The notes below the pieces were generated by a model. The model ran no database searches. It worked only from the letters and a program-made list of their open reading frames with translations, and was not told the DNA's origin. Made by a program: the position numbers and the translations under genes. DNA of 64,000 nt. It comes from Alphaproteobacteria bacterium (lineage in GTDB: Bacteria; Pseudomonadota; Alphaproteobacteria; UBA2966). Shown piece after piece: positions 8,815 to 53,583 of the stretch (positions are counted from its first letter, which is position 1; the number at the start of each line of letters is the position of its first letter). The stretch covers positions 15,477 to 79,476 of the forward strand of contig JABIFY010000092.1 in the NCBI GenBank assembly GCA_018650465.1, given 5' to 3'.

Positions 8815-9837
8815 TCAGTGGGCTCTTTCAATACAAAAATCAACAACATCAACCAGCGCTTGCTGTTCTTCACCTGCCGGGAAAAATCCGAGGGCATCGC
8901 GGGCTTTTGCGCCATAATGACGTGCGCGTTCAACCGTGTCTGCAAGGGCGCCATGTTTTTCCAGAAGCGCCATGGCCGTTTCCAGGTCACCTTCCTGTTG
9001 ATCCAGCTCTTCCAGTGTTTTGATCCAGAAAGCTCGCTCTTGGTCGTCGCCTCTGCGAAAGGCGAGGATGATCGGCAATGTAATTTTGCCTTCGCGAAAA
9101 TCATCGCCGACTGTTTTGCCCAAGGTCGCCTGTTTTGCAGAAAAATCAAGCACATCGTCAATCAACTGAAAAGTAATGCCGATGTTCCTGCCATATGATT
9201 CCAGCGCTTCTTCTTCTGCCTTTGGCCGGTCGGCGACAACAGCGCCGATACGGCACGCAGCCGAGAACAATGCTGCCGTTTTATTGCTGATAACTTCAAG
9301 ATAGGCATCTTCTGAAGTTGAGGTGTCGTTGGATGTTACCAACTGCTGAACTTCACCTTCTGCAATAACAGCTGAAGCCGTTGATAAAATATCCAGGACC
9401 TTCAATGAGCCATCCTTGACCATCAACTGAAAGGCGCGGCTGAACAGAAAATCCCCGACCAGGACGCTGGCCTGATTGCCCCACAAGGCATTGGCTGTGG
9501 CATTGCCGCGACGTAAATCACTTTCATCGACAACATCATCATGCAGCAGCGTGGCGGTATGAATGAATTCTACGCAGGCCGCTAGCTGGATGTGACGCTC
9601 ACCGGAATACCCACACATATGGGCACTGGCCAGTGTCATTAACGGGCGCAGGCGCTTGCCGCCGGAAGCAACAAGATGTCCGGCAAGTTCAGGGATCAGG
9701 GGAACGCGGCTCGACATGCGGTCGACGATGACCCTGTTGACCTTGGACAGGTCGTCAGCCACCAATGACTGGAGTTTCTTCAGGGATGCCTTTTTTGCGC
9801 TATCGCTTTTGGTTCCCAGTGGTACAACAACACCCAC
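8815..9837 (-). CDS. ispB: Octaprenyl-diphosphate synthase (polyprenyl synthetase)
   Basis: Both aspartate-rich motifs are present (LLHDDVVDESDLRRG; FQLIDDVLDF). Length 340 aa. Confidence 0.85.
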   Translation of the reverse strand: MGVVVPLGTKSDSAKKASLKKLQSLVADDLSKVNRVIVDRMSSRVPLIPELAGHLVASGGKRLRPLMTLASAHMCGYSGERHIQLAACVEFIHTATLLHDDVVDESDLRRGNATANALWGNQASVLVGDFLFSRAFQLMVKDGSLKVLDILSTASAVIAEGEVQQLVTSNDTSTSEDAYLEVISNKTAALFSAACRIGAVVADRPKAEEEALESYGRNIGITFQLIDDVLDFSAKQATLGKTVGDDFREGKITLPIILAFRRGDDQERAFWIKTLEELDQQEGDLETAMALLEKHGALADTVERARHYGAKARDALGFFPAGEEQQALVDVVDFCIERAH

Positions 9838-11095: not shown

Positions 11096-11980
11096 ATGGA
11101 AATAAACTTAACAAATTGGCTAACCTGGCTACCGTTTGATCGGTTTCGCAGTCCCCGCCCGGTTGTGGCCGTTATTCGTTTGTCTGGCGTTATTGGTCAG
11201 GGCGGGCGATTTCAGCAGGGATTGAATATTCATGCCCTGGGCAGCAGCCTGGAAACCGCTTTCAAGACCAGCGGACTAACAGCGGTGGCACTTGCCATCA
11301 ATTCTCCTGGTGGTGCCCCGGCTCAATCCAATTTGATCTATGCGCGTATTCGTGCGCTGGCCGCTGAAAAGGAAATGCCCGTTCTTGCATTCGCTGAAGA
11401 TGTTGCGGCTTCGGGCGGTTATTGGCTGGCTTGTGCGGCAGATGAAATCTATGCGGATGTTAATTCAATTGTAGGCTCAATCGGTGTCGTCTCGGCCGGG
11501 TTTGGCTTTCAGGACATGCTGGAGAAAGTTGGTGTTGAGCGCCGCATTCATGCTCAAGGTGATCGCAAGGCCATGCTGGACCCCTTCGAGCCGGAGCGAG
11601 AATCTGATGTTAAGCGCTTGCTGGCGATCCAGAAAAATATCCACGACAATTTCAAGAACCTGGTCAGGGAACGGCGGGGCGAGCGAGTGAAAATCAGCGA
11701 CCGCAAACTCTTTTCCGGTGATATTTGGACGGGGCGTGAAGCTCTGGATGCCGGTCTGATTGATGGCCTTGGCGAAATGCGCGAAATTTTGCACCAGAAA
11801 TACGGTGATGACGTAAAAATCCGCGAGGTCGGCAGAAAGTCATCTTTCCTGAAAAGACTGATCGGACGCGGCAGTGCCTCAGCGCCAGACCTGAATTTTG
11901 AGAACCCCTTGGGAAACCTGCCCGGCCAATTGCTGACAGCAATTGAAGACCGGGCATTCTGGTCTCGTTTTGGTCTCTAG
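11096..11980 (+). CDS. S49 family peptidase (SppA-like, short form)
   Basis: INSPGGAPAQSN and DVAASGGYWLACAADEIYA catalytic-serine region typical of the S49/ClpP fold. Confidence 0.75.
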   Translation: MEINLTNWLTWLPFDRFRSPRPVVAVIRLSGVIGQGGRFQQGLNIHALGSSLETAFKTSGLTAVALAINSPGGAPAQSNLIYARIRALAAEKEMPVLAFAEDVAASGGYWLACAADEIYADVNSIVGSIGVVSAGFGFQDMLEKVGVERRIHAQGDRKAMLDPFEPERESDVKRLLAIQKNIHDNFKNLVRERRGERVKISDRKLFSGDIWTGREALDAGLIDGLGEMREILHQKYGDDVKIREVGRKSSFLKRLIGRGSASAPDLNFENPLGNLPGQLLTAIEDRAFWSRFGL

Positions 11981-11983
11981 ATT

Positions 11984-13123
11984 TTAATAACCGGACAAGG
12001 TCGCAAAACGATCCCGGTGCCAGGCGGATGAACCAAAGGTATGTTCTGCCACCCGGGCCCGCTTGAGATAAAGACCGGAATCATGTTCATCCGTCATGCC
12101 AATGCCACCATGCATTTGCACACCTTCACTGGAGATCAGGTGCATGGCATCGCCAACCTTTGCCTTGGCAAAACTGGCCATGGCAGGCATATCATCGCGG
12201 CCTTCATCAACAGCTGTCAGTGCTTCCATAACGACTGAATTGCAGATTTCCAGTTCGCCAAACATCTTTACGGCACGATGCTGCAAAGCCTGAAATGTGC
12301 CAATGGGTTGGCCAAACTGATGGCGCTCCTTCAGATATTCCAGTGTAAATTCAAAGACTTGTTGGGCAGCGCCCAGCATCTCGGCGGCCAGGGCGATCCG
12401 GCCACGGTCAAGCACAGCATCCAGTATATCGGCACCTTTATCCTGCGTCCCCAGCAAGTCACCCGCATCCAGACGAACATTGCCAAATTTGACATTGGAA
12501 GCATTTCGATTGTCGACCATGGAAAGGGCCTCAATCTCGACACCGTCTGAATCAGCCGCCACGACAAATAATGAAATGCCATCGCGGTCTGTGCCTTTGC
12601 CAGATGTCCGGGCGGAGACGATCAGTTGATTGGCAACGTGGCCATCCAGAACCTGGCATTTGTTACCGTTCAGCACCCAACCGTCACCATCGGCCGTAGC
12701 CGTTGTTTCGACGCCATATGGAGCGTGATGGGCACCTTCCTCTGCCGCCAGGGCCAACAGGCATTTGCCCTCGGCAATCGCGGGCAAGAAAGTTGATTTC
12801 TGTTCATCCGATCCACCCAACATCAAGGCTGAGCTACCCAGCACGATGGTGGACACCAGGGGTGATGGCAACAAAGTGCGCCCGGTTTCCTCCAGCACAA
12901 CGCCCAAGCCCTGAAAGCCAAAGTCGGCACCGCCAAATTCTTCCGGAATAATCACGCCAGCCCAGCCAAGTTCGGCCATTTCTGTCCACAGGGCCTTGTC
13001 AAATCCATCGGCGTTTTCTTCGTCCCGGATTTTGCGGAAGGCACTGACAGGTCCCTTGTCACTGACAAAGTCACGCGCGGAATCGCGCAACATGTTTTGT
13101 TCTTCGTTTAAGATCATCGCCAT
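11984..13123 (-). CDS. Acyl-CoA dehydrogenase family protein
   Basis: ACAD-fold pattern throughout. Last gene of the minus-strand beta-oxidation operon. Confidence 0.8.
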   Translation of the reverse strand: MAMILNEEQNMLRDSARDFVSDKGPVSAFRKIRDEENADGFDKALWTEMAELGWAGVIIPEEFGGADFGFQGLGVVLEETGRTLLPSPLVSTIVLGSSALMLGGSDEQKSTFLPAIAEGKCLLALAAEEGAHHAPYGVETTATADGDGWVLNGNKCQVLDGHVANQLIVSARTSGKGTDRDGISLFVVAADSDGVEIEALSMVDNRNASNVKFGNVRLDAGDLLGTQDKGADILDAVLDRGRIALAAEMLGAAQQVFEFTLEYLKERHQFGQPIGTFQALQHRAVKMFGELEICNSVVMEALTAVDEGRDDMPAMASFAKAKVGDAMHLISSEGVQMHGGIGMTDEHDSGLYLKRARVAEHTFGSSAWHRDRFATLSGY

Positions 13124-21690: not shown

Positions 21691-22542
21691 CTAGACTGCG
21701 TAGGCCGGAGCTTGGGCAAGCAATGACATCGCCTGATCTCCCGACAGGGGGCGGCTGAACAAAAACCCTTGGAATTCATTACATTTCAGCGGCCGCAAGG
21801 CATCCAGTTGGGCAGGTTCTTCAATGCCTTCGGCCACAACTTTCAACCCGAGGTCCTTGGCCATGTTGACCATACCCTTTACCAGCAAAGCATCTTTGTG
21901 ATTGTCGGGAATATTGCGGATAAAAGATTGATCTATCTTGACCGCGCCTATCGGTAGTTTGCGTACATAGTCAAGCGACGCATATCCGGCCCCAAAATCA
22001 TCCAGGGCAAACTTCACGCCGATATCACGAAGACGCAGCATGGTGTTGACGACCTGATCTATATTATCAAGCCGTGTAGATTCAGTTACTTCTAGCTCCA
22101 GGTCGCCAGGTTCAACGCATGTGGCTTCCAGCAAACGTTCCACCATATCAGCAAAGGCTGGTTCAAGCAGTTGGCGGGGGGAAACGTTTACAGCGAGACC
22201 TCCTGGTTTGAGTCCGGTCTCTTTCCATTGGCGATGCGTTGCCAGCGCGTTGAACAGTACCCATTCCCCCAGTTCAGTGATCATCCCGGTTTCTTCGGCG
22301 ACAGGGATAAATCGTTCGGGTTCAATCATCCCGAGATGGGGGTGGTGCCACCGAACCAGAGCTTCGCAGCCCTTGATCCGACCACTGACGGTATCGATAC
22401 GAGGTTGATAATGCACAGAAAGTTCGTCCCGGCGCAGGCCGTTGCGCAGAACTGTATACAAACCGGTCGCCAGAGATTGGCGGCTCACGCCTCGTCGCCG
22501 TTCAGCGGAAGCTGGTCTTTGAAAGGTGGTATCGTCACGCAT
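21691..22542 (-). CDS. Stand-alone EAL domain c-di-GMP phosphodiesterase
   Basis: EALVRWHHP, DDFGAGYASLDYV, KIDQSF and EGIEE motifs. No sensory domain. Confidence 0.8.
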   Translation of the reverse strand: MRDDTTFQRPASAERRRGVSRQSLATGLYTVLRNGLRRDELSVHYQPRIDTVSGRIKGCEALVRWHHPHLGMIEPERFIPVAEETGMITELGEWVLFNALATHRQWKETGLKPGGLAVNVSPRQLLEPAFADMVERLLEATCVEPGDLELEVTESTRLDNIDQVVNTMLRLRDIGVKFALDDFGAGYASLDYVRKLPIGAVKIDQSFIRNIPDNHKDALLVKGMVNMAKDLGLKVVAEGIEEPAQLDALRPLKCNEFQGFLFSRPLSGDQAMSLLAQAPAYAV

Positions 22543-26032: not shown

Positions 26033-26548
26033 TTAAACGTTGCCGCCAGCCTCGCTGTAGGCCATGGATAGTTCTGCGTCGTCTTCCGGCTCCAGAATTT
26101 GCTCCAGGGCGGGCAGAAATCCCATTTCTTCCTTTTGAATGTGGAAGACTTCACGCTCAACCAGTTCCAGTCCCTGGGCATGAAATGCTGACCAACTGGC
26201 ATCATCAAATCCATTTTCCAAGGCGTCTTTGGCCTTCGCAAGTAAGGCTTCAGCCAGTGGTCTGATGATCTCGTGTTCTTCCTTCAGCATGGTTGGAATG
26301 CCAGGGTCAACATATTCTGAGAATGTGGGAAATAACCTGCTTTCTTCAAAGGCAAAATGCCCTTTGACATCTGCTTCCAGAACGGCAATCAGTCCCGTTA
26401 ACAGGCTGCGCCAGGTTGGGTCATCTGCTGTGGGGACAGCGCTGGCACCCTGGCGGTTCAGATCAGTTTCCAGTTTTTCCAACATGGCGAGCGTCGCCAC
26501 GTGATCGCGGTGCAGGGCCTTGGTAATACTCAACTCGAATTCAAACAT
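26033..26548 (-). CDS. Hemerythrin HHE cation-binding domain protein
   Basis: H..H...E...HFAFEE..LFP...EH His/Glu spacing. Confidence 0.65.
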   Translation of the reverse strand: MFEFELSITKALHRDHVATLAMLEKLETDLNRQGASAVPTADDPTWRSLLTGLIAVLEADVKGHFAFEESRLFPTFSEYVDPGIPTMLKEEHEIIRPLAEALLAKAKDALENGFDDASWSAFHAQGLELVEREVFHIQKEEMGFLPALEQILEPEDDAELSMAYSEAGGNV

Positions 26549-26571
26549 TCTTCAATCCACTTTTGGGGACG

Positions 26572-27870
26572 TTAGTTTTCTGCTGCGGTCCGGTGATAGG
26601 TAAAAAAGCTTCGCAGCACTGAGAAACAGAACCAGGCAAAGCCAGCCGCACCGATAAATCCAACCAACCCGGCAACCCTCAATCCATCCGGTTGATCCAG
26701 CGCAATACTGGTTGCCCCCACAACAATGGCGAGGCCATGACAGATGGCATGCAGTTTCAGGGGGGAGCCTTGGGCCAATTCGGATAACCTTGGTGGTTTG
26801 TGATTTCGTTTCGACATATTCATTGCTGCCAAAAATGGCACAATCCGCTGCAACATGCCCTTGATGTAGGTCAAGAGCCAGCCAAACAGCAACACAAAGC
26901 CAAACAGGGCAGGTCCCTGATCACCGAGCAGGTCGAGCGCCAGGGCGAAGCCACAAATAATACTGAGCAACATCATGCCCCAGGCACCTTTAATCATGAA
27001 AAAGGAAAGTCCCAGCTTTTTACGCATGCCATTTTCCAGGCACCAGACCATGCCTTTAATATGAAGAGCTGCACCCGCCAGCCCGGCAACAGCGGCTAGG
27101 GCGATCAACTCAGGCAGGGCAAAATTCAATCCGGCAATCGTGCCCGCCAAGCCTGTCACCAACAGGGTGTAAGAAACCCAACCTTGCTTGCCTGGGGCAT
27201 TTTGTGACAACGCAAACATTGGCACCAGAATGTTGCCAAACCCCACTGCCAGAAACCCCATAAACCCGCAGGCCGCCAGCACCATGTGCTGGGCCGCGAC
27301 GCTCTCGTGATCCATCAGCCAGGCAAATTCAAAATCAAGTACCAGGGCAACCCCCAGTCCCAACAATCCAAATAATGCGGCCATGGAAATCCATGCATGG
27401 GCAACGGCCAGTTTCAAAGTTGTCGAACGCCACAGCAGGCTGGTGATGACATGCAGGAAGACCATCAAGGTCAAGGTTATTAATAACGCGCCACAAGACA
27501 TCAAAAACTGATTGCTTAGAAAAAAACCTGACAACAAACACGCAAGTCCCGGCAGAAACAGCCAGATCAACAGTTTGGCGGGCAACAGGCTTTTGTGGCC
27601 AAGGCCGGTGGCGACAGGCAGCAGCTGGATTGCAGCACCTATGGCCGTTGCCACCATAACGCCCAATGTCAACAAATGCAGGACAGCCAACACAGGTCCC
27701 GGCCCGCCGGCGTAGGATGGAATGTCATCGGCAGTATAGATCACGCCCAGCCAGACACCTGCGTGACAAACCACCGCGACCAGAAAAAACACGAAGGGCA
27801 GCATGGGCGGCAACAGCCTTTGTTGCGCCCCCATCAAAATCATGCCCGGTAGCTGTGGCGCCTTTTTCAT
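26572..27870 (-). CDS. Polytopic membrane protein of unknown function (His-rich TM helices; possibly NnrS-like)
   Basis: About 12 hydrophobic segments with conserved-looking intramembrane His (HLLTLGV, AHAWISMAAL, HMVLAACGF, HIKGMVW). The family was not identified. Confidence 0.45.
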   Translation of the reverse strand: MKKAPQLPGMILMGAQQRLLPPMLPFVFFLVAVVCHAGVWLGVIYTADDIPSYAGGPGPVLAVLHLLTLGVMVATAIGAAIQLLPVATGLGHKSLLPAKLLIWLFLPGLACLLSGFFLSNQFLMSCGALLITLTLMVFLHVITSLLWRSTTLKLAVAHAWISMAALFGLLGLGVALVLDFEFAWLMDHESVAAQHMVLAACGFMGFLAVGFGNILVPMFALSQNAPGKQGWVSYTLLVTGLAGTIAGLNFALPELIALAAVAGLAGAALHIKGMVWCLENGMRKKLGLSFFMIKGAWGMMLLSIICGFALALDLLGDQGPALFGFVLLFGWLLTYIKGMLQRIVPFLAAMNMSKRNHKPPRLSELAQGSPLKLHAICHGLAIVVGATSIALDQPDGLRVAGLVGFIGAAGFAWFCFSVLRSFFTYHRTAAEN

Positions 27871-28124
27871 GCTGATAATCTTTTCAGGTGCAGTTCAATA
27901 TTCCCGGGGGCTTCATTCAGATAATCCCAATCCCAGTCGATTTCATTAAGCTCCGGAAACAAATAAACCGGGTCTCTCTCCAGACTGACGATTACCTCCG
28001 TTGCATCCGGATTTGCTTCGATCCAGCCCATGATGGCGACAAAGGGACCGGGCGGCTCCATACCGATCGTATTGATACGAGGCCGTCCATCCTCACCGGT
28101 GCTGATTTGAGCTTCGATTGTCAT
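27867..28124 (-). CDS. Small conserved hypothetical protein (about 85 aa; possibly DUF2249-like)
   Basis: Start taken at the internal Met (MTIEAQ...). Its stop overlaps the start of the membrane-protein gene by 4 nt (ATGA). The upstream approximately 90 codons of the ORF-track version look non-coding. Confidence 0.4.
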   Translation of the reverse strand: MTIEAQISTGEDGRPRINTIGMEPPGPFVAIMGWIEANPDATEVIVSLERDPVYLFPELNEIDWDWDYLNEAPGNIELHLKRLSA

Positions 28125-28496
28125 TTTTTTGCCATTATTCTGATTTAGTACTGCAGCATTACGAGAGCATTTCTGACTTCGACGGAAACGCTGCGATGCG
28201 TATTGCTCATGCAGGACGCCTGATAGATATGTGGTGGCGATTCCGTCAAGACCGAAATCGCCATAGTTGGTGAAGCTGGAGAGATTGCCTTGCCTTTGGT
28301 CATGAAAGCACCATTTTCCAATGTACGATAGGCTGGATTTGACCGCCGGAATGAATCTTATTATACCTTCGCCCCGGATTGATCCGGTTTTGCACAAAAT
28401 TTAAGATTTGTCGTGTAGATAGAGTGTCCAAATTCACAGGAATGTCGGGAGCCGCTCTTGCTTCCCATACAGATATTGATGTTACGGAGTTTTGAA

Positions 28497-29915: not shown

Positions 29916-30017
29916 TTACTTGTTTCCCCATTTTTGGTCACATTCTGTTAACTACGTTCTGATATGCACAAGTAGTGATATTTTAGAATAGCCACGAATC
30001 CAATATAGAATTCGACA

Positions 30018-31286
30018 TTGGATTCCACAATGAGCGTGCGACCAGAAGCCAGGGGTGCGGACAGGATGTCTGACGAAGACGAAGTCATTGACGACGAAGC
30101 TGTTGCGGCGGAGTGGGAAGCCTCGATGTTGGCGGAAGCCGGCGGGGACGAAGAGGAAGGCGTGGACGACGACGCTGTTGCCGCCGAATGGGAAGCCCAG
30201 ATGGCGGCCGAAGGCGGTGGCGATGAAGGTGGCGGTGATGACGATGCCATGGCCGAGGAGTGGGCCGCTATGGCCGACGGCGATGGTGATGGCGAAGATG
30301 AAGACGATGACATGGGGTCGACCCAGTCGACGCGTGTTCTTGACCAGGACGAAATCGACAGCCTGCTCGGCTTTGACAATGATGGTGACGGCGAGGAAGA
30401 AACTTCCGGCATCAAGGCGATCATCAACAGTGCGCTGGTTTCATACGAACGACTTCCCATGCTGGAGATCGTTTTTGACCGCCTGGTCCGGTTGATGTCG
30501 ACGTCCTTGCGTAACTTTACCTCAGATAATGTTGAAGTTTCGCTGGATAACATCACGTCAATTCGATTTGGCGATTACCTCAATTCCATTCCCTTGCCAG
30601 CTATTCTCAGTGTATTCCGAGCGGTTGAATGGGATAACTTCGGTTTGATCGTTGTTGATTCAGCCATGATCTATTCGATTGTGGATGTGCTGCTTGGCGG
30701 ACGTCGAGGCACTGCGGCTATGCGTGTTGAAGGTCGTCCATACACGACCATTGAACGAAACCTGGTTGAGCGCCTGGTGACCGTTGTGCTGGCCGATATG
30801 GGTGCGGCATTTGAGCCCCTTAGCCCTGTTAGCTTTAATTATGACCGCCTGGAAACCAATCCACGCTTTGCAACGGTTGCGCGACCTGCAAACGCGGCTA
30901 TTTTGATCAAGCTTCGGGTTGATATGGAAGACCGCGGCGGTCGTTTGGAAATAATGTTGCCATACGCCACGCTTGAGCCCATTCGTGAATTGCTGTTGCA
31001 GCAGTTCATGGGCGAGAAATTTGGCCGGGATACAATCTGGGAAAGCCACCTGGCAACAGAGCTCTGGTCGACCGAAATCTCTATTGAAGCTGTGCTTGAC
31101 GAACAAACAATGTCTTTGACAGATGTTATGAATTTTTCGGTTGGTGAAACCTTGATGTTGAACAGTGCGCCAGACGACCAGATTGAGTTGCGCTGCGGCG
31201 GCATTCCCCTGATGACCGGTAAGATGGGCCGGGTTGGGAATTCAATTTCAATTCGTGTGGACAATGGTATCGAATCGCGAAACTGA
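30018..31286 (+). CDS. fliM: Flagellar motor switch protein FliM with acidic tandem-repeat N-terminal extension
   Basis: Colinear with E. coli FliM (CheY-binding LDQDEIDSLL, RLPMLEIVFDRL, VDVLLGGRRG, IMLPYATLEPIRELL, C-terminal SpoA/FliN-like LRCGGIPLMTGKMG). It is preceded by about 100 aa of Asp/Glu-rich repeats (DDEAVAAEWEA x3). Confidence 0.85.
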   Translation: MDSTMSVRPEARGADRMSDEDEVIDDEAVAAEWEASMLAEAGGDEEEGVDDDAVAAEWEAQMAAEGGGDEGGGDDDAMAEEWAAMADGDGDGEDEDDDMGSTQSTRVLDQDEIDSLLGFDNDGDGEEETSGIKAIINSALVSYERLPMLEIVFDRLVRLMSTSLRNFTSDNVEVSLDNITSIRFGDYLNSIPLPAILSVFRAVEWDNFGLIVVDSAMIYSIVDVLLGGRRGTAAMRVEGRPYTTIERNLVERLVTVVLADMGAAFEPLSPVSFNYDRLETNPRFATVARPANAAILIKLRVDMEDRGGRLEIMLPYATLEPIRELLLQQFMGEKFGRDTIWESHLATELWSTEISIEAVLDEQTMSLTDVMNFSVGETLMLNSAPDDQIELRCGGIPLMTGKMGRVGNSISIRVDNGIESRN

Positions 31287-31297
31287 GTTTTTCACAT

Positions 31298-31651
31298 GTG
31301 ATCAAGCCACAAACCGCTCCTTCGCAGGGGCGGTTTTCTTTTGGAATCTGTCCAACTCCCCATTCTATCGAAAATGATATTAGGCTAATATTTGGTTCGG
31401 CTGGAGAAGCGGTCCTGTTGGCCAACGATACGCCTTATGGTCTGGCAGTCGCTGTATGGACGAAAAATTCTGCCCGGATGCATCGCCTGGGCCGCAAGAT
31501 TGAAGCCTGTATTCAATGGATGAATTGTTGGTTCTTGCGGGATCTCAGGACGCCGTTCGGCGGTTCAAAACCATCCGGTATTGGTCGCGAGGGCGGCGTG
31601 CATTCACTGGAATTCTATACCGATTTGCGTAATATCTGCGTCAAGCTTTAG
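31298..31651 (+). pseudogene. Remnant of an NAD-dependent aldehyde dehydrogenase (2-hydroxymuconic-semialdehyde-dehydrogenase-like), C-terminal about 95 aa only
   Basis: LLANDTPYGLAVAVWTKNSARMHRLGRKIEACIQWMNCWF...PFGGSKPSGIGREGG matches the ALDH C-terminus. The catalytic Cys and Rossmann domains are absent, and there is no upstream ALDH-coding frame. Confidence 0.7.
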
Positions 31652-31665
31652 GAGCAACTGACGAC

Positions 31666-32460
31666 ATGACAACAACGAACGAAAGCATCGAAAAAGCGGC
31701 AGCCGCCATTCGCAAAGCCTACGATACTGGCGAGGCTTGTGCTCCCGTGCGAGAGTTTATTGGTGAGACGGATCTGGATGCAGCTTATGCAGTTCAGGAA
31801 ATTAACACCAAACACTGGCTCGACACCGGCCGTCGACCTGTCGGGCGGAAAATTGGTCTGACGTCAAAAGTTGTGCAGACCCAATTGGGTGTGGATCAGC
31901 CTGACTACGGCATGCTCTATGCGGACATGGATGTCGGCGATAGTGAAGAAGTGGCTCTTGGTCGGGTCATTCAGCCACGGGTAGAAGCTGAAATATTTTT
32001 TGTTCTGGGCGATGACCTCGATGAAGAACAACTCACGACTGCCGATGTGATGAACGCCATTGACTACGCCGTTGCCGGAATTGAAATCGTTGGATCTCGC
32101 GTCGCTGAATGGAATATCCGCATTACCGATACGATTGCTGATAATGCGTCCTCCGGCCTGTTTGTGCTGGGCCAGCAACCTAAACTGATTTCCGAATTTG
32201 ATTTGCGCTTGTGTGGCATGGTCATGGAACGCAAGGGTGAGCCGGTTTCCGTGGGGGCAGGTGCCGCATGTCTCGGCAGCCCGATCAACGCAACTTTGTG
32301 GCTGGCCAGAATGATGGCGAAGGTCGGTCGTCCCTTGATGCGTGGCGATATTGTTCTGTCTGGTGCCCTGGGCCCTATGGTGCCTGTCTCACCTGGAGAT
32401 GTCGTTGAAGCACGGATAAGCGGGCTGGGTTCAGTTCGTGCCGTCTTTGCGCCTGAATAA
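31666..32460 (+). CDS. 2-oxopent-4-enoate (2-keto-4-pentenoate) hydratase family (XylJ/DmpE/MhpD-like)
   Basis: Member of the MhpD/4-OD fold family. Assigned as the hydratase from its position immediately upstream of the acetaldehyde dehydrogenase and aldolase genes. Confidence 0.6.
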   Translation: MTTTNESIEKAAAAIRKAYDTGEACAPVREFIGETDLDAAYAVQEINTKHWLDTGRRPVGRKIGLTSKVVQTQLGVDQPDYGMLYADMDVGDSEEVALGRVIQPRVEAEIFFVLGDDLDEEQLTTADVMNAIDYAVAGIEIVGSRVAEWNIRITDTIADNASSGLFVLGQQPKLISEFDLRLCGMVMERKGEPVSVGAGAACLGSPINATLWLARMMAKVGRPLMRGDIVLSGALGPMVPVSPGDVVEARISGLGSVRAVFAPE

Positions 32461-32478
32461 ACTTTAGGGAAACAAATT

Positions 32479-33417
32479 ATGAAAGCCAAAGTGGCGATTA
32501 TTGGTTCCGGAAATATTGGAACCGATTTGATGATCAAGATACAACGCATGTCGCAGGTGCTGGAAATGGCCGCAATGGTTGGTATTGATGCAGATTCGGA
32601 TGGATTGAAACGAGCCACTGAAACGGGCGTCGCTACAACCTATAAAGGCCTTGAGGGACTGACGAAACTGGATTGTTATGCCGATATCAAAGTCGTGTTC
32701 GATGCAACATCTGCTGGTGCTCACAAGGCACATTCCGAGCGACTGATCGCGGATGGCAAGCAAGTCATTGACTTGACCCCGGCAGCAGTCGGTCCGTTTG
32801 TGGTACCGGTGGTCAATATGGACGAGCATCAAAATGAGCCAAATATGAACATGGTGACCTGCGGCGGCCAGGCGACAATCCCGATTGTTGCTGCTGTGCG
32901 ACGGGTTGTGGATCGTGTGGTTTATGGTGAAATTGTCGCTTCTATTTCTTCAAAATCGGCAGGACCAGGTACCCGAGCAAATATTGATGAGTTTACAGTG
33001 ACCACAGCCAAAGGCATTGAAACCGTGGGCGGTGCCGAAAGGGGCAAGGCGATTATTGTCATGAACCCGGCCGAGCCCCCGATGATCATGCGAGACACAG
33101 TGTACACCTTCAGCCAGGGTGGCAACGAAGACGCGATCCGGGATTCCATCCAGACTATGGTTGCTGAAGTTCAAAAATATGTTCCAGGGTATCGTTTGAA
33201 ACAGGAAGTTCAGTTTGAACATTTTGGCGATAATCAAAAACTCAACATTCCTGATGTCGGTCAGACGGCTGGACTGAAAACAACGGTCTTTCTGGAGGTT
33301 GAAGGCGCTGCACACTATTTACCCGCCTATGCCGGAAATCTTGACATCATGACGTCATCTGCTTTGGCAACCGCTGAACGCTGGGTTGAAACCAAGCTTG
33401 ATGAAAAGGCTGCCTGA
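32479..33417 (+). CDS. Acetaldehyde dehydrogenase (acetylating)
   Basis: [22 protein letters not shown]-terminus and overall DmpF/MhpF pattern. Confidence 0.85.
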
Positions 33418-33419
33418 TC

Positions 33420-34484
33420 ATGAATGCAACTCAAACGCCTGATAAAATATATATCCAGGATGTAACCCTGCGGGATGGGATGCATGCTGTGCGTCACCAG
33501 TTTGATCTGGACACAGTGCAGTCAATTTCGCGGGCGCTGGATGAAGCGCATGTGGATGCCATCGAGATTTGCCATGGCGACGGTTTAACGGGCACCTCCT
33601 TCAACTATGGTTTCGGCTCGCATTCTGACAATGACTGGATTGCCGCCGTTGCCGATGTCGTTGAACAGGCGAAGGTTACTGTTTTGCTGATCCCCGGGAT
33701 CGGCACGATTGAAAACCTGAAATCGGCCTATGACGCCGGTGCCCGCAGTGTCCGTATTGCCACGCACTGCACCGAAGCTGATGTTTCGAAACAACATATT
33801 GAAGCGGCCCGCGAAATGGGTATGGATACGGTCGGATTTTTGATGATGGCCCATATGATTCCTGCACAGGAACTTTTAGCCCAGGCATTGTTGATGGAAT
33901 CTTATGGTGCTGAATGTGTTTATGTAACCGACAGCGCCGGAGCCTTGTTGCAGGATGAAGTGGCGGAGCGAGTGCGAATTTTTCGGGATGCATTGAAGCC
34001 TGAAACGGGTATTGGTATCCATTGCCACCACAATCTTTCGCTTGGTGTCGCCAGCTCTGTGTCAGCTGTCCAGAATGGCGCGACAAGAGTTGATGCTTCG
34101 CTGGCCGGGAACGGGGCTGGTGCCGGCAATACACCGCTTGAAGTTCTGATTGCGGTATTCAATCGCATGGGTATCGAAAGTGGGTGTGATCTCTACAAAT
34201 TGATGGATGCGGCGGATGATCTTGTTCGTCCATTACAAGATCGTCCTGTGCGGGTTGACCGTGAAAGTTTGTCGCTGGGGTATGCTGGAGTCTATTCCAG
34301 CTTCTTGCGTCATGCCGAAAATGCTTCTGAAACCTATGGCATTGATACCCGTGAAATGCTTGTAGAGCTGGGGCGTCGTCGCATGGTCGGTGGCCAGGAA
34401 GACATGATTGTCGATGTGGCACTGGACCTGGTGAAGAGCAGGCAAGAAGCGGGCGCTGAAAATTCTGAAGAGGCAACAACATGA
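33420..34484 (+). CDS. 4-hydroxy-2-oxovalerate aldolase
   Basis: [12 protein letters not shown]...EICHGDGL DmpG/MhpE signature. Start is 3 nt after the previous stop. Confidence 0.85.
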
Positions 34485-35251
34485 GTAATCTTGGAAACCT
34501 GGCGGAAATTGTTGATGAAGCTGCGCGAACGGCAACTGCGGTACCGCAATTGACTATTGATACACCGGATTTGACGCCAGAAGACGGTTATGCCGTGCAG
34601 GCCCTCGCCATGGCGAGGCGCCTTTCACGTGGTGAAAAACGTGTTGGCGTGAAGATGGGCCTGACCAGTCGGGCCAAAATGATTCAGGTGAATGTGGAAG
34701 AGGTCATCTGGGGTCGCTTAACAGATGGCATGCGGGTCGAAGAAGGCGGTTTCACATCCATGTCGAAATATGTGCACCCCCGGGTGGAGCCTGAAATTGC
34801 TTTTTTGATGGGTGCGCCTCTGTCAGGGGATGTCAGTGCCGTTGAAGCTATGAACGCTGTGGAAGCTGTTGCGCCTGCCATGGAAATCATCGATAGCCGC
34901 TACAAGGATTTCAAATTTACCTGGGCAGATGTTGTTGCAGACAATTGTTCATCTTCCGGGTTTGTGATTGGGAATTGGTGTGCACCGGACAGCGATATCG
35001 CAAATGCGGGCATGGTCATGGAAATTGATGGGCAAGCCCGGCAAATCGGGTCCAGTGCTGCGATCCTGGGCAATCCGGTGCGGTCGCTGGTCGCGGCGGC
35101 CCGCATGGTGTCCCAATGGGGCGAACGTCTGGAAGCCGGGTACATTGTGATGGCAGGTGGGGCGACGGCCGCCGAACCTCTGGCTGCGGGCATGAGCATC
35201 CGGAATACAGTTCAGGGACTTGGCAGTGTGTCGTTTCAGGTAGAGGCCTGA
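34481..35251 (+). CDS. 4-oxalocrotonate decarboxylase family (XylI/DmpH-like)
   Basis: Second MhpD-fold paralogue, placed after the aldolase as in dmp/xyl operons. 4-nt overlap with the upstream gene. Confidence 0.55.
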
Positions 35252-35352
35252 GCAACAAGTATCACGCAGGCGCGATATCTGCGACAATATACCACGTCGT
35301 TGCCGGGGTCGTTTTCATTTTCAATAGATCGGTCTGATCAAAAGAGGCCGAC

Positions 35353-36360
35353 ATGACCCATACTGAACCGATGCGTGACATAGCCCATCTGGGCCATATC
35401 GAATTGCTCTCACCCAAGCCTGACGAAAGTTTCCGCTATTTCACAGAGCTGCTGGGCATGGAATGTGTGCACCGCGAGGGACAGTCAGTCTATTTGCGGG
35501 GGTACGGAGACAATGCTTCAACAACCTTGAAGTTATCCGAATCTGACAAGCCAGGTGTCGGCCATGTGGGTTGGCGTGCCATCAGCCCCCAGGCATTGGA
35601 ACGCAGGGCGGCGGAGATTGAGAAAACCGGTCTTGGCCTTGGTTGGAGCAATGGGGACTTTGGCCATGGTCGCGCTTATCAGTTTTTTGATCCGGATGGA
35701 CACAAGCAGGAAATTTACTACGAGGAAGACCGCTACATTGCACCGGATGACAAGCGATCAACCCTGAAAAATCTACCCATGAAATACCCCGGTCGCGGCG
35801 TCGGTGTGCGGCGGACAGACCATCTGGCCTTGCTTTGTAAAGACGTCGGACCCAATCGTGAATTCGCCCAGGAAAATCTGGGTTTGCAACTGCGTGAACA
35901 AGTGCTTTTCGACGAGGGTAAATTTGAAGTCGGCTCGTGGATGAGTTCAACTGCCGTTCATCATGAAATGGCTTATGTTGCCGATGTCAAAGGCTTGAGC
36001 GGTCGATTGCATCATGTTTCGTTCTGGGTCGATAATCGAGAAGATGTGTTGCGGGCGGCCGATATCCTTATGGAAAATGGAATCGAAATCGAGGCAGGGC
36101 CATCGCGTCATAATAATTCCCAGGCCTTCTATCTCTATTCCTTTGAACCCGGTGGCAACCGCATCGAAATCTACTCAAGCGGGTTTTTGGTTTTTGCACC
36201 AGACTGGCAACCTGTCATCTGGAACGAACAAGAACGCGGTACAGGCGTTTATTGGGGCGCAGCCTTGCCGGACAGTTTTTTGAATTATGGAACACCAGAC
36301 CCGGAAACACATGGATTGCCGACCCCAGCCAGCGATATACCCGGCGTTGATCCGCTGTAA
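35353..36360 (+). CDS. Catechol 2,3-dioxygenase (type I extradiol dioxygenase, VOC superfamily)
   Basis: Colinear with XylE, including GRLHHVSFWVDNREDVLRAADIL...GPSRHNNSQAFYLYSFEPGGNRIEIY. Confidence 0.8.
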   Translation: MTHTEPMRDIAHLGHIELLSPKPDESFRYFTELLGMECVHREGQSVYLRGYGDNASTTLKLSESDKPGVGHVGWRAISPQALERRAAEIEKTGLGLGWSNGDFGHGRAYQFFDPDGHKQEIYYEEDRYIAPDDKRSTLKNLPMKYPGRGVGVRRTDHLALLCKDVGPNREFAQENLGLQLREQVLFDEGKFEVGSWMSSTAVHHEMAYVADVKGLSGRLHHVSFWVDNREDVLRAADILMENGIEIEAGPSRHNNSQAFYLYSFEPGGNRIEIYSSGFLVFAPDWQPVIWNEQERGTGVYWGAALPDSFLNYGTPDPETHGLPTPASDIPGVDPL

Positions 36361-36641
36361 ATACTGTCTGGACTATTCTGGAAGGTCAGCCAGGGCATCT
36401 CTGATTTCTTGTAGATTGCAGGGCTTGCGAATAATCGGAATGATGCCCCCAAATCTTCCTGGGTTTGTTCCATATTTTCATTACTATTCAAGGCCTTGAT
36501 GCCGCGCTGCGTTTTCAAAAGAGCCGCACAGACCAAACCAAATGATAATCTATTTTATCGACAAAGCATTGTTGCTCGCAGGATGAGTGCCGGATACTCT
36601 TGAATAGCTAATTCCCCAATAATTTCCTTCCGAAATACAAA

Positions 36642-37055
36642 ATGAAAATCCATATACATCAAATCTCCGTTGAGTGGGGCGATTGTGACCCTGCCGGCAT
36701 TGTATTTTATCCGAACTATTACCGCTGGATGGACGAAGCAACCTTTCATTTGTTTGACAGTGCAGGTTACGGTTGGACGGAAATTCGAGAAAAATTTGGC
36801 CCCCCCGGATTACCTTTGGTAGCCACACATGCGGAATATCGCATTCCAGGCTTTTTTGGTGACAAAATGAGTATCGAAGTCGGCGTTTCCGAATGGGGAA
36901 CCAAATCACTAACTGTGTCCCACCGCTTTATGAAAGACGGCAAGCTGGCAGTTGAAGGTTGGGAAAAGCGCATCTGGAGCGAGGGTGATCCGGGGGCCGG
37001 CAAAAAAATTGTAACGGCTCCCATCCCCGAAGAAGTGAAGGTCGCGCTGAGTTAA
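36642..37055 (+). CDS. 4HBT-fold acyl-CoA thioesterase (YbgC-like)
   Basis: Catalytic-region motif WGDCDPAGIVFYPNY (DxxGxV). Confidence 0.7.
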   Translation: MKIHIHQISVEWGDCDPAGIVFYPNYYRWMDEATFHLFDSAGYGWTEIREKFGPPGLPLVATHAEYRIPGFFGDKMSIEVGVSEWGTKSLTVSHRFMKDGKLAVEGWEKRIWSEGDPGAGKKIVTAPIPEEVKVALS

Positions 37056-37084
37056 ACCGGATCATTGAATCAAGGACAGGAATT

Positions 37085-37918
37085 ATGACCAGTGGAGTAG
37101 TCGCAAGCGCAATCGTGCCCCATACACCTCGCATGGGCGTTGAGGAATCCGCACCGGATTTTGTCCGTCCACTTATCCAGGGACAACGCGATCTTGGTGA
37201 AGAACTACGCGCGCTCAAACCAGATGTAATTGTCTTGCAGTCCAGCCACTGGGTCAGCACATTTAATTGGTACGTGACTGTTAACAAAATCCATGAAGGT
37301 GTTTGCATCGCCGACGAAGCACCAGACCTTATTCCCGGCTCCCCTTACAAATACGATGGTGATCCAGAATTCGGACAGGCCGTTGTCGATGCGCTCAAAG
37401 GGGCAGGCCTGGCTGTTGGTTTGATGGATTCACCCCATTTCAAATGGGATTATGCCTCATATGTGCCGCTGCATTATCTCGACCCGGAAGCAACGATCCC
37501 GGTCGTCTTGCTGCCATCCGTCATATGTTCTGATCTGAATGAAAACATCAGGGTTGGTGGACTTGTACATGAGGCCGCAGTCAAGGAGGGCAAAAAAGTT
37601 GTTTACCTGGGCAGTTGCGCCCTCGCTCACAAAGTTGTCCGTGGGCCCCATTTGTGGCCATCACAGGAGCATATGGATACAGATAAAAAGCTGATTTCCA
37701 TGTTCTGTGACGGCGAAATAGATGCGTTGATTGATTGGCTGCCTGCTTATGCTCACGATGTTGTCACCGAAATGGGGGGGCGACCCCTTGCCGGGATGTT
37801 GGGGGCAACTGCTGCCATGGCCGGGGATACTGGTCGTGTCCGTGGCAAACAATGGGGTCCCTACGGACAAAGTTCCGGATCTGGCAATGCCAGCATTTGT
37901 GTTTTGCCAGCAGACTAA
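37085..37918 (+). CDS. Class III extradiol ring-cleavage dioxygenase, LigB family (AmnB/HpaD-like)
   Basis: AIVPHTPR N-terminus, PDVIVLQSSHW, WDYASYVPLHYL and LGSCALAHK match LigB-family landmarks. Confidence 0.65.
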   Translation: MTSGVVASAIVPHTPRMGVEESAPDFVRPLIQGQRDLGEELRALKPDVIVLQSSHWVSTFNWYVTVNKIHEGVCIADEAPDLIPGSPYKYDGDPEFGQAVVDALKGAGLAVGLMDSPHFKWDYASYVPLHYLDPEATIPVVLLPSVICSDLNENIRVGGLVHEAAVKEGKKVVYLGSCALAHKVVRGPHLWPSQEHMDTDKKLISMFCDGEIDALIDWLPAYAHDVVTEMGGRPLAGMLGATAAMAGDTGRVRGKQWGPYGQSSGSGNASICVLPAD

Positions 37919-50825: not shown

Positions 50826-53581
50826 CATCACCTGGTACGAGTGGGTCTGTCGACTTTTCCCTGAACGGAAAACCGGTTTCAGTTTCCGTTGATCCCACGC
50901 GTCGGCTGTCACAAGTGCTGCGCGAAGACCTTGGTCAGACCGGCACCAAAATAGGTTGTAATGCGGGCGACTGCGGGGCCTGTACGGTGTTGGCCGATGG
51001 CCTTTCGGTTTGTGCCTGCATGGTACCTGTCGGGCGGTTGCAGGGTGCGCAAATCCAGACCGTGGAGGGATTGGCTGAAGCGGGCATTCCCAATCGACTG
51101 CAAAAAGCATTTTTGCATTTTGGCGCCGCCCAGTGTGGCATTTGTACGCCGGGTATGTTGATGGCGGCCACCGCATTGCTGGCGGAAAACGCCCGTCCCG
51201 ATGAAGCCCAGGTAAAAGACGCGCTGGGCGGTGTGCTTTGCCGCTGTACAGGATATCGCAAGATCATCCAGGCGGTGATGGCTGCCCATGATTTTGATGC
51301 CGAACCTTTGCGGGCTGAAACCGGCACGGCAGTGGGCACTCGCCTTAACCGGCTTGATGGTGAAGAAAAGGTTCTCGGCACAGATTTGTTTGGTGATGAC
51401 GTTGCTGGACAAGGTGCACTCGTCCTCAAGGTTATTCGCTCACCTTATCATCGGGCGTCATTTTCCTTCGGGGATACAGGCGGGTTACTGGTGACAACAC
51501 CTGGCCTGATCAAAATCCTGACCGCCAGCGATATTCCGGGCAGAAATTTACATGGCGTTATTCCGGATACTGTCGATCAACCAGTCTTTGCCGTGGCTGA
51601 AACCCGTTTCAAGGGCGAGGCGATTGCTGCCGTGGTTGGGGATGCCGACGCCGTGGACAAGTTTGATGTGTCGGACTTTCCCGTGACCTGGACGGAACGA
51701 CCCGCGTACCTGACGCCGGAAAAGGCTTTGGCTGACAATGCACCCCTGATACATGCCAACCGGCCCGGAAATATCCTGATGAACGGCATCGTGCAGCGCG
51801 GTGATCTGGCGGCCGGCTTCGCGCACAAAGACGCCACGATTGCCGAAGGCGATTTCATCACCGGCTTTGTTGAGCACGGTTATATTGAACCGGAAGCGGG
51901 CCTGGCCCAACGTGTGGGCGACCGACTTGAAATGCATGTTTGCACCCAGTCGCCCTATATGGATCGCGATGACACGGCAGCTATTCTTGGTATCGCCAAA
52001 GAAGATGTGCGCATCATACCGACGGCGGTTGGCGGTGGCTTTGGCAGCAAGCTTGATCTCTCGGTCCAGCCCTATATCGCACTGGCCGCCTGGTTGCTGG
52101 ATCGCCCTGTGCGCATGACCTACAGCCGCCAGGAAACCATGATGTCGACAACCAAACGACATCCTTCAGCCATCAAGGCCAGAATCTCTGCAGACAAACA
52201 GGGCAAGCTGTTATCCATGGATTTCAACGGCGTGTTCAACACCGGGGCCTATGCTTCGTGGGGACCGACGGTTGGCAATCGGGTGCCGGTACATGCCTCG
52301 GGTCCTTATATATATGATGCCTATCGCGCCCGCAGTCAGGCGGTGCATACCCATTGCGTGCCGTCCGGTGCCTTCCGGGGATTTGGTGTGCCGCAATCTT
52401 CCATTGTGCAGGAAACCCTGTTTGATGAACTGGCGGACAAGCTGGCCATTGATCGGCTGGACTTTCGTTTGCGCAACGCCCTGGTGAACGGTGCAACGAC
52501 GGTTTGTGGCCAGGTCTTCAGCGAAGGTGTGGGCATCAAGGATTGCCTGCAAAGTCTGAAACCCCATTGGGACCGGGCCTTGTCTGAAGCTGATGGTTTC
52601 AATGCCGCATCAGATGGCAGCTTGCGACGCGGTGTGGGTGTGGCGGGCATGTGGTACGGCTGTGGCAACACGTCGCTGCCCAATCCGTCGACCATCAAGG
52701 TTGCCATTCGCAATGATGGCCAGGTGGTTCTGTTCCAGGGTGCTGTGGATGTGGGGCAGGGGGCCAACACCGTTATCACACAAATCTGTGCTGATGCCGC
52801 AGGCCTGGACATCCTCAATTTTTCTCTTGTCTATGGTGATACCGATCTAACGGCGGACGCGGGTAAAACCTCAGCCTCACGCCAAACCTTTATCAGTGGC
52901 AAGGCGTCATACCTCGCGGGCCAGGATTTGCGCAAAAAAATCCTGCGTATGGTCAATGCCAGTGAAGATGCGCGCCTCGCCATTAATGGCAGCAAAATTA
53001 CCGCCATCGATACAGCCGGGCGAAATGATATCGATCTGGCTGCCTTGCCGGCGGATGAAGATGGATTTGTCTTTACTGGTGAAGGAACCTTTGATCCACC
53101 TACCGTGGCCCTCGATGAAAATGGCCAGGGTGAACCCTATGCGGTTTTTGGATATGGCGCACATATGATGGAACTGGAAGTCGATACCCGCCTGGGCACG
53201 GTACGCTTGATCAAGCTGACGGCCGCCCATGATGTGGGCAAAGCCATTAACCCAACCCTGATTGAAGGCCAGATCGAAGGCGGTGCAGCCCAGGGACTGG
53301 GCCTCGCTCTGATGGAAGAATTTGTGCCGGGCCGCACCGAAAATCTGCACGATTATTTGATTCCGACCATTGGCGATGTGCCCGAGGTGGAATCGATCCT
53401 TGTTGAAGTGCCCAACGCACATGGTCCTTACGGGGCCAAAGGCATAGGTGAACAAGTTCTGATCCCGACTGCGCCAGCCATCCTCAATGCCATCCGACAT
53501 GCCACGGGTGCGGTTTTACGGGATATGCCCGCAACGCCAGAAAAAGTGCGCAATGCAGTTTTGCGGGCGAAAGGGAATTAG
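50822..53581 (+). CDS. Xanthine-dehydrogenase-family fused [2Fe-2S] + molybdopterin-binding subunit
   Basis: N-terminal plant-type and second 2Fe-2S Cys motifs (CNAGDCGACTV; CGICTPG). Large aldehyde-oxidase/XDH Mo-binding body. 4-nt overlap with the FAD subunit. Confidence 0.8.
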   Translation: MTSPGTSGSVDFSLNGKPVSVSVDPTRRLSQVLREDLGQTGTKIGCNAGDCGACTVLADGLSVCACMVPVGRLQGAQIQTVEGLAEAGIPNRLQKAFLHFGAAQCGICTPGMLMAATALLAENARPDEAQVKDALGGVLCRCTGYRKIIQAVMAAHDFDAEPLRAETGTAVGTRLNRLDGEEKVLGTDLFGDDVAGQGALVLKVIRSPYHRASFSFGDTGGLLVTTPGLIKILTASDIPGRNLHGVIPDTVDQPVFAVAETRFKGEAIAAVVGDADAVDKFDVSDFPVTWTERPAYLTPEKALADNAPLIHANRPGNILMNGIVQRGDLAAGFAHKDATIAEGDFITGFVEHGYIEPEAGLAQRVGDRLEMHVCTQSPYMDRDDTAAILGIAKEDVRIIPTAVGGGFGSKLDLSVQPYIALAAWLLDRPVRMTYSRQETMMSTTKRHPSAIKARISADKQGKLLSMDFNGVFNTGAYASWGPTVGNRVPVHASGPYIYDAYRARSQAVHTHCVPSGAFRGFGVPQSSIVQETLFDELADKLAIDRLDFRLRNALVNGATTVCGQVFSEGVGIKDCLQSLKPHWDRALSEADGFNAASDGSLRRGVGVAGMWYGCGNTSLPNPSTIKVAIRNDGQVVLFQGAVDVGQGANTVITQICADAAGLDILNFSLVYGDTDLTADAGKTSASRQTFISGKASYLAGQDLRKKILRMVNASEDARLAINGSKITAIDTAGRNDIDLAALPADEDGFVFTGEGTFDPPTVALDENGQGEPYAVFGYGAHMMELEVDTRLGTVRLIKLTAAHDVGKAINPTLIEGQIEGGAAQGLGLALMEEFVPGRTENLHDYLIPTIGDVPEVESILVEVPNAHGPYGAKGIGEQVLIPTAPAILNAIRHATGAVLRDMPATPEKVRNAVLRAKGN

Positions 53582-53583
53582 TG

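Follow-up and report, generated by a model that had tools for sequence, protein, structure and literature searches.

FliM occupies the middle of the C ring; its middle domain binds FliG, its C-terminal domain binds FliN and its N-terminal peptide captures CheY-P. In the enteric proteins of Salmonella and E. coli (334 aa; 8umd), the CheY peptide is located at the extreme N-terminus and neither an acidic tail nor a tryptophan motif is found. In Caulobacter crescentus, FliM residues 47–62 bind CleD and are needed for switching (PMC5677366), the CheY/Cle site includes I57/D58 (PMC5677366; PMC7534056), and the Cle proteins use the CheY-P-binding FliM peptide (PMC5677366). As this site lies at residues 47–62, a tail precedes it in C. 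crescentus too; the Caulobacter studies use the tail only within a construct of residues 2–65 and contain no analysis of it (PMC5677366; PMC7534056). The literature that was searched, with incomplete coverage, held nothing on such an extension, on its motif or on solitary fliM genes in Alphaproteobacteria.

The DNA analysed here, referred to as the window, is a whole stretch of 64 kb with a single fliM gene, whose product shares with Caulobacter FliM the domain order and a CheY helix placed internally behind an acidic tail. The window protein carries three copies of a tryptophan motif in a tail of about 89 aa, whereas the Caulobacter tail is about 47 aa long and the FliM proteins of C. zeae and Caulobacter sp. 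(66–69% identity over the aligned region) carry one related copy (DDQAAMAQWAAE). Caulobacter fliM is part of a fliLM operon; in contrast, the window fliM is not beside fliL. With Salmonella/E. coli FliM the alignment runs end to end, residues 90–401 of the window protein against 4–320, and takes in the CheY-binding peptide, the middle domain and the FliN-like C-terminal domain. A closer counterpart is the FliM of the Rhodospirillaceae metagenome-assembled genome (MAG) GCA_964343605.1 (L001/L004, P0006), which is 83–85% identical and has the three-motif tail with its 25-codon duplication; its gene occupies the canonical flgF | fliL fliM orf173 cluster, while that of the window has moved. Taken as a whole, the locus is most likely explained by a sole functional fliM, relocated in a marine Rhodospirillales-like alphaproteobacterium and bearing the tail of its lineage with putative docking helices.

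Identity, start codon and selective constraint of fliM

The open reading frame (ORF) list places a plus-strand frame at 30018..31286, and its product was identified as FliM by several independent models, in agreement with the preliminary description. PF02154 (FliM) matched with 220.1 bits against a cut-off of 27 (E 3.2e-65, model positions 3–192 of 192), PF01052 (FliMN_C, SpoA) with 62.5 bits against 23.8 (E 3.5e-17), and the NCBIfam FliM equivalog TIGR01397 with 315 bits against 219.6, positions 1–319 of 320 of the model being aligned to residues 90–402. A sequence search of the PDB matched solved FliM structures, including those of the middle domain. The middle domain (PF02154) is encoded at 30420..30995 on the plus strand, residues 119–310 of the 406-aa protein or 135–326 of a longer 422-aa reading, and the C-terminal FliN-like (SpoA) domain, recognised by both PF01052 and TIGR01397, at 31059..31265 on the same strand. 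By its family, the window protein is assigned as a standard C-ring switch protein.

The longer reading begins at a TTG at 30018 and was rejected, as an ATG at 30066 is conserved and the stretch upstream of it carries indels. The start region at 30066 (GGACAGGATGTCTGACGA) is common to four related contigs, which keep GGACAGG-ATG-TCTGACGA at this place, and the homologues P0001 and P0003–P0006 begin with MSD(E/D). Between the TTG at 30018 and the ATG at 30066, the related contigs differ by an indel of 1 nt and an insertion of 21 nt that break the frame, so this stretch is noncoding. The coding sequence accordingly lies at 30066..31286 on the plus strand, 406 aa and a stop rather than 422 aa, and is backed by the Pfam and TIGR01397 matches, the conserved start and a dN/dS of 0.03. 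The preliminary description had allowed that a mis-called start might leave the repeats untranslated; the TTG start was indeed wrong, yet the error amounts to 16 codons and the repeats, being downstream of the ATG, are still translated. An antisense ORF of 202 aa (29948–30556) has a Ser/Pro-rich product and is probably a mere shadow of the repeats.

The peptide LDQDEIDSLL (residues 92–101) precedes the middle domain, does not vary among 85 relatives and is predicted to be the CheY-P-binding peptide from its likeness to LSQxEIDxLL, a motif defined in PMC5677366. The wider region (residues 90–103, RVLDQDEIDSLLGF; 30333..30374, plus strand) is invariant at R90, L92, Q94 and E96–F103 in the 85-sequence alignment and is the counterpart of Caulobacter FliM residues 47–62.

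Selective constraint was estimated by the Nei–Gojobori method over the solitary copies of three lineages, and gave dN/dS of 0.027–0.032 overall, 0.014–0.020 for the core and 0.06–0.08 for the extension, figures which are approximate as dS exceeds 1 and is saturated. The ORF is full length with its frame intact, and every residue that is invariant across the family in the 85-sequence alignment is kept; together with the dN/dS of 0.03, nothing in this set marks a pseudogene. The relocated fliM is most likely functional and under strong purifying selection.

The acidic tail and its tryptophan motif

Both the TIGR01397 model and Salmonella FliM (8umd_C, from its residue 4) start aligning at residue 90, and thus about 89 residues are extra. 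This extension is rich in Asp, Glu and Gly, with Asp and Glu making up 40% of it, and contains three copies of the motif D-D-D-A-[VM]-A-A-E-W-E-A-M, centred on W17, W42 and W66, so that three acidic repeats do precede the CheY-binding peptide as had been described from the sequence. Tandem Repeats Finder (TRF) detected a 75-nt tandem repeat of 2.1 copies with 79% matches at 30072–30228, followed by the third, more diverged motif. All three copies are on the plus strand. Copy 1 (residues 9–27, DDEAVAAEWEASMLAEAGG; 30090..30146) and copy 2 (residues 34–52, DDDAVAAEWEAQMAAEGGG; 30165..30221) are of the WEAxM type and are a 25-codon tandem duplicate of each other, and copy 3 (residues 58–72, DDDAMAEEWAAMADG; 30237..30281) is of the distal W-[EA]-A-M type; an example of a tryptophan-motif peptide is DDDAVAAEWEAQMAAEG.

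An AlphaFold2 run with the 85-sequence alignment, from which confidence and secondary structure were read, predicted helices at residues 10–25, 35–49 and 60–70 that coincide with the three motifs, the first being amphipathic, and a further helix at 94–100 for the CheY peptide. The mean pLDDT was 86 for the block of residues 11–20; helix 60–70 was of lower confidence and the linkers were of low confidence. When the PDB was searched with the extension alone, only chance-level matches were returned (E 0.35 and 2.1).

Systematic comparison across Alphaproteobacteria was done to place this tail. The homology search returned alphaproteobacterial FliM proteins of 360–417 aa, and among the matches listed, an acidic extension of 42–102 aa lies before the CheY motif in 120 of 120 homologues, nearly all of which carry the tryptophan motif as well; in genome loci with an assignable start, the extension spans about 24–79 aa. 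The motif statistics were drawn from the listed homologues and 110 FliM genes of fetched loci (230 sequences), anchored on the tryptophan. The consensus from 170 unique instances is D-[DQ]-[DE]-A-[MVL]-A-A-E-W-[EA]-A-M-A, in which positions −4, 0 and +3/+4 relative to the tryptophan are hydrophobic. Two copies per protein are the commonest number (100 of the 230 sequences), against none in 57, one in 55 and three in 18, so that the window protein, with three, is among those with the most copies. Its acidic extension carries three copies of [MVL]-A-A-E-W-[EA]-A-M, each predicted to be helical. A six-frame regular-expression search of 126 loci and the window gave no convincing instance of the motif outside FliM.

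With reference to taxonomy, the motif is present in Caulobacter (MADEIDDQAAMAQWAAE...), Asticcacaulis, Maricaulis, Parvibaculaceae, Minwuia, Zavarzinia, Tagaea and Acetobacteraceae and in many Rhodospirillales-type MAGs, and the distal W[EA]AM copy, to which copy 3 belongs, is found in many orders. In Rhizomicrobium, Brevundimonas and Phenylobacterium the motif is degenerate or absent and a shorter acidic tail is still there; the motif is therefore dispensable for basic FliM function. The duplication of copies 1 and 2 is common to the closest relatives (L001, P0002–P0006), whereas L092, P0007 and P0009 are without it and have two motifs, a distribution from which the third copy appears to have been gained in a sublineage by the 25-codon (75-nt) tandem duplication. 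The preliminary description had named an extension ubiquitous and invariant in the family as what would count against it, and this is largely what the sequences show: the extension is not peculiar to this gene but a lineage feature, the usual alphaproteobacterial acidic tail, although its length and copy number vary.

Solitary location and flanking genes

When about 50 ORFs across the 64 kb were scanned with Pfam, no flagellar or chemotaxis gene other than fliM was detected, the remaining genes being metabolic, transport and signalling genes; the reported lack of flagellar neighbours is hence correct. This is unusual when set against the reference loci surveyed by tblastn with the L001 flagellar proteins, as fliM directly follows fliL in 80 of 80 reference-genome loci from many alphaproteobacterial orders, with flgF-flgG-flgA-flgH divergent on the upstream side; on the downstream side lie an ORF of 173 aa, a gene resembling flbB and one for a large TPR protein. 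In the window and in the related contigs L084, L085 and L086, fliM is not downstream of fliL. The FliM proteins of P0002, P0003 and P0005 are 88–92% identical to that of the window and their genes are in the same neighbourhood, preceded by genes for hemerythrin, a 432-aa protein, DUF2249, Sel1 and a short-chain dehydrogenase (SDR). At least four related lineages have a solitary fliM in this neighbourhood. The junction between fliM and the fragment that follows it is reproduced with 99.9–100% identity in two independent assemblies, L125 (ENA) and L126 (JGI), and the solitary arrangement is no assembly artefact.

That fragment is the C-terminal end of an aldehyde dehydrogenase, as the preliminary description had it. 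The ORF of 117 codons at 31298–31651 ends in 86 codons (31391..31651, plus strand; positions 381–460 of 461 of the Pfam Aldedh model) that are 85% identical to residues 407–492 of the enzyme of L086, which has an intact 492-aa aldehyde dehydrogenase at the equivalent position; the window is shorter than L086 by about 1.35 kb. The fragment is a deletion remnant, and its truncation is unrelated to fliM. In L084 and L085, thioesterase and TPP-enzyme genes come directly after fliM, and their window counterparts are at 36642 and 37949; relative to these contigs, the meta-cleavage genes (31.7–36.4 kb) and a LigB-type dioxygenase gene (37085–37918) of the window are insertions. The 3′ flank of fliM is thus a variable insertion site.

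The empty slot and the probable relocation of fliM

A metagenome scan with the L001 FliL as query recovered five contigs, L087–L091, that carry flgI, fliX, dksA, flgH, flgA, flgG, flgF | fliL, orf173, the flbB-like gene, cheY, cheZ and others. These clusters are the presumed counterpart of the solitary gene. In L087–L091 the orf173 start follows the fliL stop after 14–17 nt, with GGAG in some, and fliM is absent from all five, of which L087 breaks off just inside orf173. By comparison, the sister contigs L092, L093 and L001 and all other loci with enough sequence have fliM in the slot after fliL. A single JGI sample, Ga0316204, yielded both L088 and the solitary-fliM contig L085.

The two sets of contigs are alike in divergence and composition. 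Identity to L001 is 85–86% for FliL in the empty-slot set and 84–86% for FliM in the solitary set, and DNA identity within the sets is 72–81% and 73–78%, respectively. The GC content of most contigs is 51–53%, compared with 58% in L001, and tetranucleotide usage in the window correlates with that of L090 (r = 0.92) as highly as with that of other solitary-fliM contigs. Consistent with this, the solitary and empty-slot contigs are inferred to belong to the same genomes, a link made across separate contigs by one shared sample, by matching composition and divergence and by the complementarity of the two arrangements. None of the loci examined combined the two arrangements. The data are most simply read as one relocation and not as a duplication: in the ancestor shared by a small clade, fliM would have left the otherwise fixed flgF | fliL-fliM-orf173-flbB-like operon and come to lie between the short-chain dehydrogenase gene and metabolic genes. 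The label of orphan does not imply an unusual role; the gene is best explained by a single relocated fliM in a genome whose flagellar cluster has the slot left empty, as in L087–L091.

Other explanations of the solitary gene were weighed against this relocation. An extra, specialised fliM paralogue kept beside a canonical copy and serving a second motor or some task outside motility, could be suggested by the unusual site among metabolic genes and by the three motif copies, but it is unlikely: clusters of matching divergence and composition, assigned to the same genomes as described above, have a cleanly empty fliM slot, the protein is 84–86% identical to canonical-site orthologues and shares the three-motif layout of L001, the core dN/dS of about 0.02 betrays no relaxation or divergence of the post-duplication type, and the two arrangements were never seen in one locus. 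It is very improbable that the gene is a decaying leftover of a degraded flagellar system. Its want of flagellar neighbours and the pseudogene fragment beside it, in a stretch where genes have been gained and lost, would suit such decay, but a full-length ORF with all invariant FliM residues, a dN/dS of about 0.03 over three lineages with dS above 1, a conserved upstream block and terminator, and complete flagellar clusters in what is presumed to be the same clade all point the other way. An assembly chimera, or horizontal acquisition of the gene on the meta-cleavage gene island, is extremely improbable even though the right flank varies between relatives, only some of which have the island, as the identical fliM/fragment junction recurs in two other assemblies, the left flank from hemerythrin to SDR is conserved with fliM in contigs free of the island, and the closest FliM relatives look like neighbours by vertical descent.

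The relocation removes a false lead: the solitary fliM would not encode a new kind of signalling protein or be a relic, and would instead be a relocated housekeeping motor gene with the tail typical of its lineage. It provides a compact case of operon break-up without loss of function, in which the emptied junction was recovered along with the present site and the gene was apparently excised from an operon of otherwise fixed order across at least 80 alphaproteobacterial species.

Possible role of the tail

The tryptophan helices are probably docking motifs. The tail could act as a flexible acidic tether projecting from the outer side of the C ring, from which amphipathic helices centred on tryptophan would dock a motor-associated partner near the CheY site, more motif copies giving higher local avidity. 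Partner candidates may be CheY-family regulators (CheY-like or Cle-type), the hydrophobic patch of a FliN-type domain or another switch-associated protein. We put forward, tentatively and at somewhat less than even confidence, that these helices constitute an undescribed alphaproteobacterial linear docking motif whose copies (0–3) would tune recruitment, and that relocation into a separate transcription unit would allow FliM dosage to be set independently of fliL.

The main rival is an acidic flexible spacer or cation-binding tail, in line with a role raised in the preliminary description, which would set the reach or the charge of the CheY peptide and whose repeats would have no specific partner. 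Such a spacer accords with the composition, very rich in Asp, Glu and Gly, with the length range of about 24–102 aa, with linkers predicted to be disordered and with the several genera that are without the motif and keep the acidic tail. It accounts for composition and losses but not for a fixed consensus of 12 residues flanking the tryptophan, with hydrophobic periodicity conserved across distant orders; the helices are moreover confidently predicted, and the extension dN/dS of 0.06–0.08 is tighter than expected of a spacer defined by composition only. We therefore hold the spacer to be rather doubtful, albeit worth retaining. Docking helices of the proposed kind might explain the sorting of many CheY-like proteins at the motor in these bacteria, and the conserved tryptophan motif, on which nothing was found in the literature searched, is also present in the model organism Caulobacter.

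Upstream block, putative terminator and probable transcription unit

Two noncoding features flank the relocated gene. A block of about 55 nt, TGGTCAC..TCTGTTAACTACGTTCTGATATGCAC...GTGATATTTTA (29931..29985, plus strand), sits between the divergent SDR and fliM genes and includes a GTTAAC palindrome at 29947–29952. The block is nearly invariant in the window, L084, L085 and L086, whose flanking coding DNA is only 73–79% identical; this near-invariance makes it a plausible promoter or operator, for fliM or for the divergent SDR gene. A scan with the sigma-70 consensus found promoter-like sites in no greater number than in shuffled sequence.

Downstream, a hairpin resembling an intrinsic terminator, with an 11-bp stem and a T-run, is present at 31311..31344 on the plus strand, 25 nt after the fliM stop. 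By eye, L084/L085 and L086 each have their own, different hairpin and T-run at the same position, 20–30 nt past the stop. As a lineage-specific hairpin with a T-run follows the stop in each, fliM is probably monocistronic, and the relocated gene would be a separate transcription unit with an upstream block and a terminator of its own.

The upstream regions of fliL in five clusters share an element, TTTCAAC-N3-CTTGTTAACCAWC-N5-RCTAGCAT, that is CtrA-box-like. A promoter shared with fliL was considered and rejected, as a position-weight matrix of the fliL element ranks the fliM block 755th in the window. By eye, a TGTTAAC core is common to the fliM upstream block and the fliL element.

Flagellar clusters with and without fliM

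In the flagellar clusters of five metagenome contigs (L087–L091), fliM is cleanly absent between fliL and the next open reading frame, the two being separated by a gap of only 14–17 nt, as exemplified by L090 (10001–11036) and L088 (1533–2597). This empty slot is apparently the donor site of the relocated fliM. Two genes lie 3' of fliM in the canonical arrangement and can be followed both in L001, a related locus where fliM is retained after fliL (11178–12365), and in the fliM-less L090 (10506–11747). The first encodes a product of 173–177 aa with no family match, and in L001 the start of this gene and the stop of fliM overlap. The second encodes a protein roughly 205 aa long that weakly resembles FlbB, a collar protein of spirochaetes (34 bits, under the cut-off). 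At least one of the two was found by tblastn in nearly all loci having sequence 3' of fliM.

A conserved element, TTTCAAC-N3-CTTGTTAACCAWC-N5-RCTAGCAT, was located about 90–100 nt 5' of fliL in five related clusters, namely L001 (approximately 9285–9325), its canonical sister contig L092, and the fliM-less L090, L088 and L087. Judged by eye, it resembles the CtrA box (TcAA-N7-TTAAC).

Surroundings of the solitary fliM

A 202-aa Ser/Pro-rich open reading frame on the reverse strand (29948–30556) overlaps the fliM repeat region in antisense and is regarded as a shadow cast by these GA-rich repeats rather than a gene. On the 5' side, a trio comprising hemerythrin, a 432-aa protein without any match in Pfam or NCBIfam and a DUF2249 protein (26033–28397) adjoins Sel1/SDR/fliM and is kept in the contigs of two close FliM homologues (P0002 and P0005), with part of it visible in the shorter contig of a third (P0003).

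On the 3' side, a meta-cleavage pathway gene set was observed at 31298–37918, containing hydratase, acetaldehyde dehydrogenase, HOA aldolase, a 4-OD-like gene, extradiol dioxygenase and LigB-type dioxygenase. Comparison with L084 and L085, related contigs that also carry a solitary fliM, identifies this set as an insertion. In its first gene, an aldehyde dehydrogenase, a roughly 1.35-kb deletion has spared just the last 86 codons; the solitary-fliM contig L086 has no such deletion.

Three EAL-domain (c-di-GMP phosphodiesterase-type) genes were also noted within the single 64-kb window, encoding REC-EAL (373–1578), cNMP-binding-EAL (7415–8623) and stand-alone EAL (21691–22542) proteins, the last being syntenic in the P0002 contig. 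Further along the window, two large open reading frames of 499 and 374 aa (53581–56173), both without a Pfam match, have a xanthine-dehydrogenase-family enzyme on one side and a pair of PF06684 (AA_synth) genes on the other.
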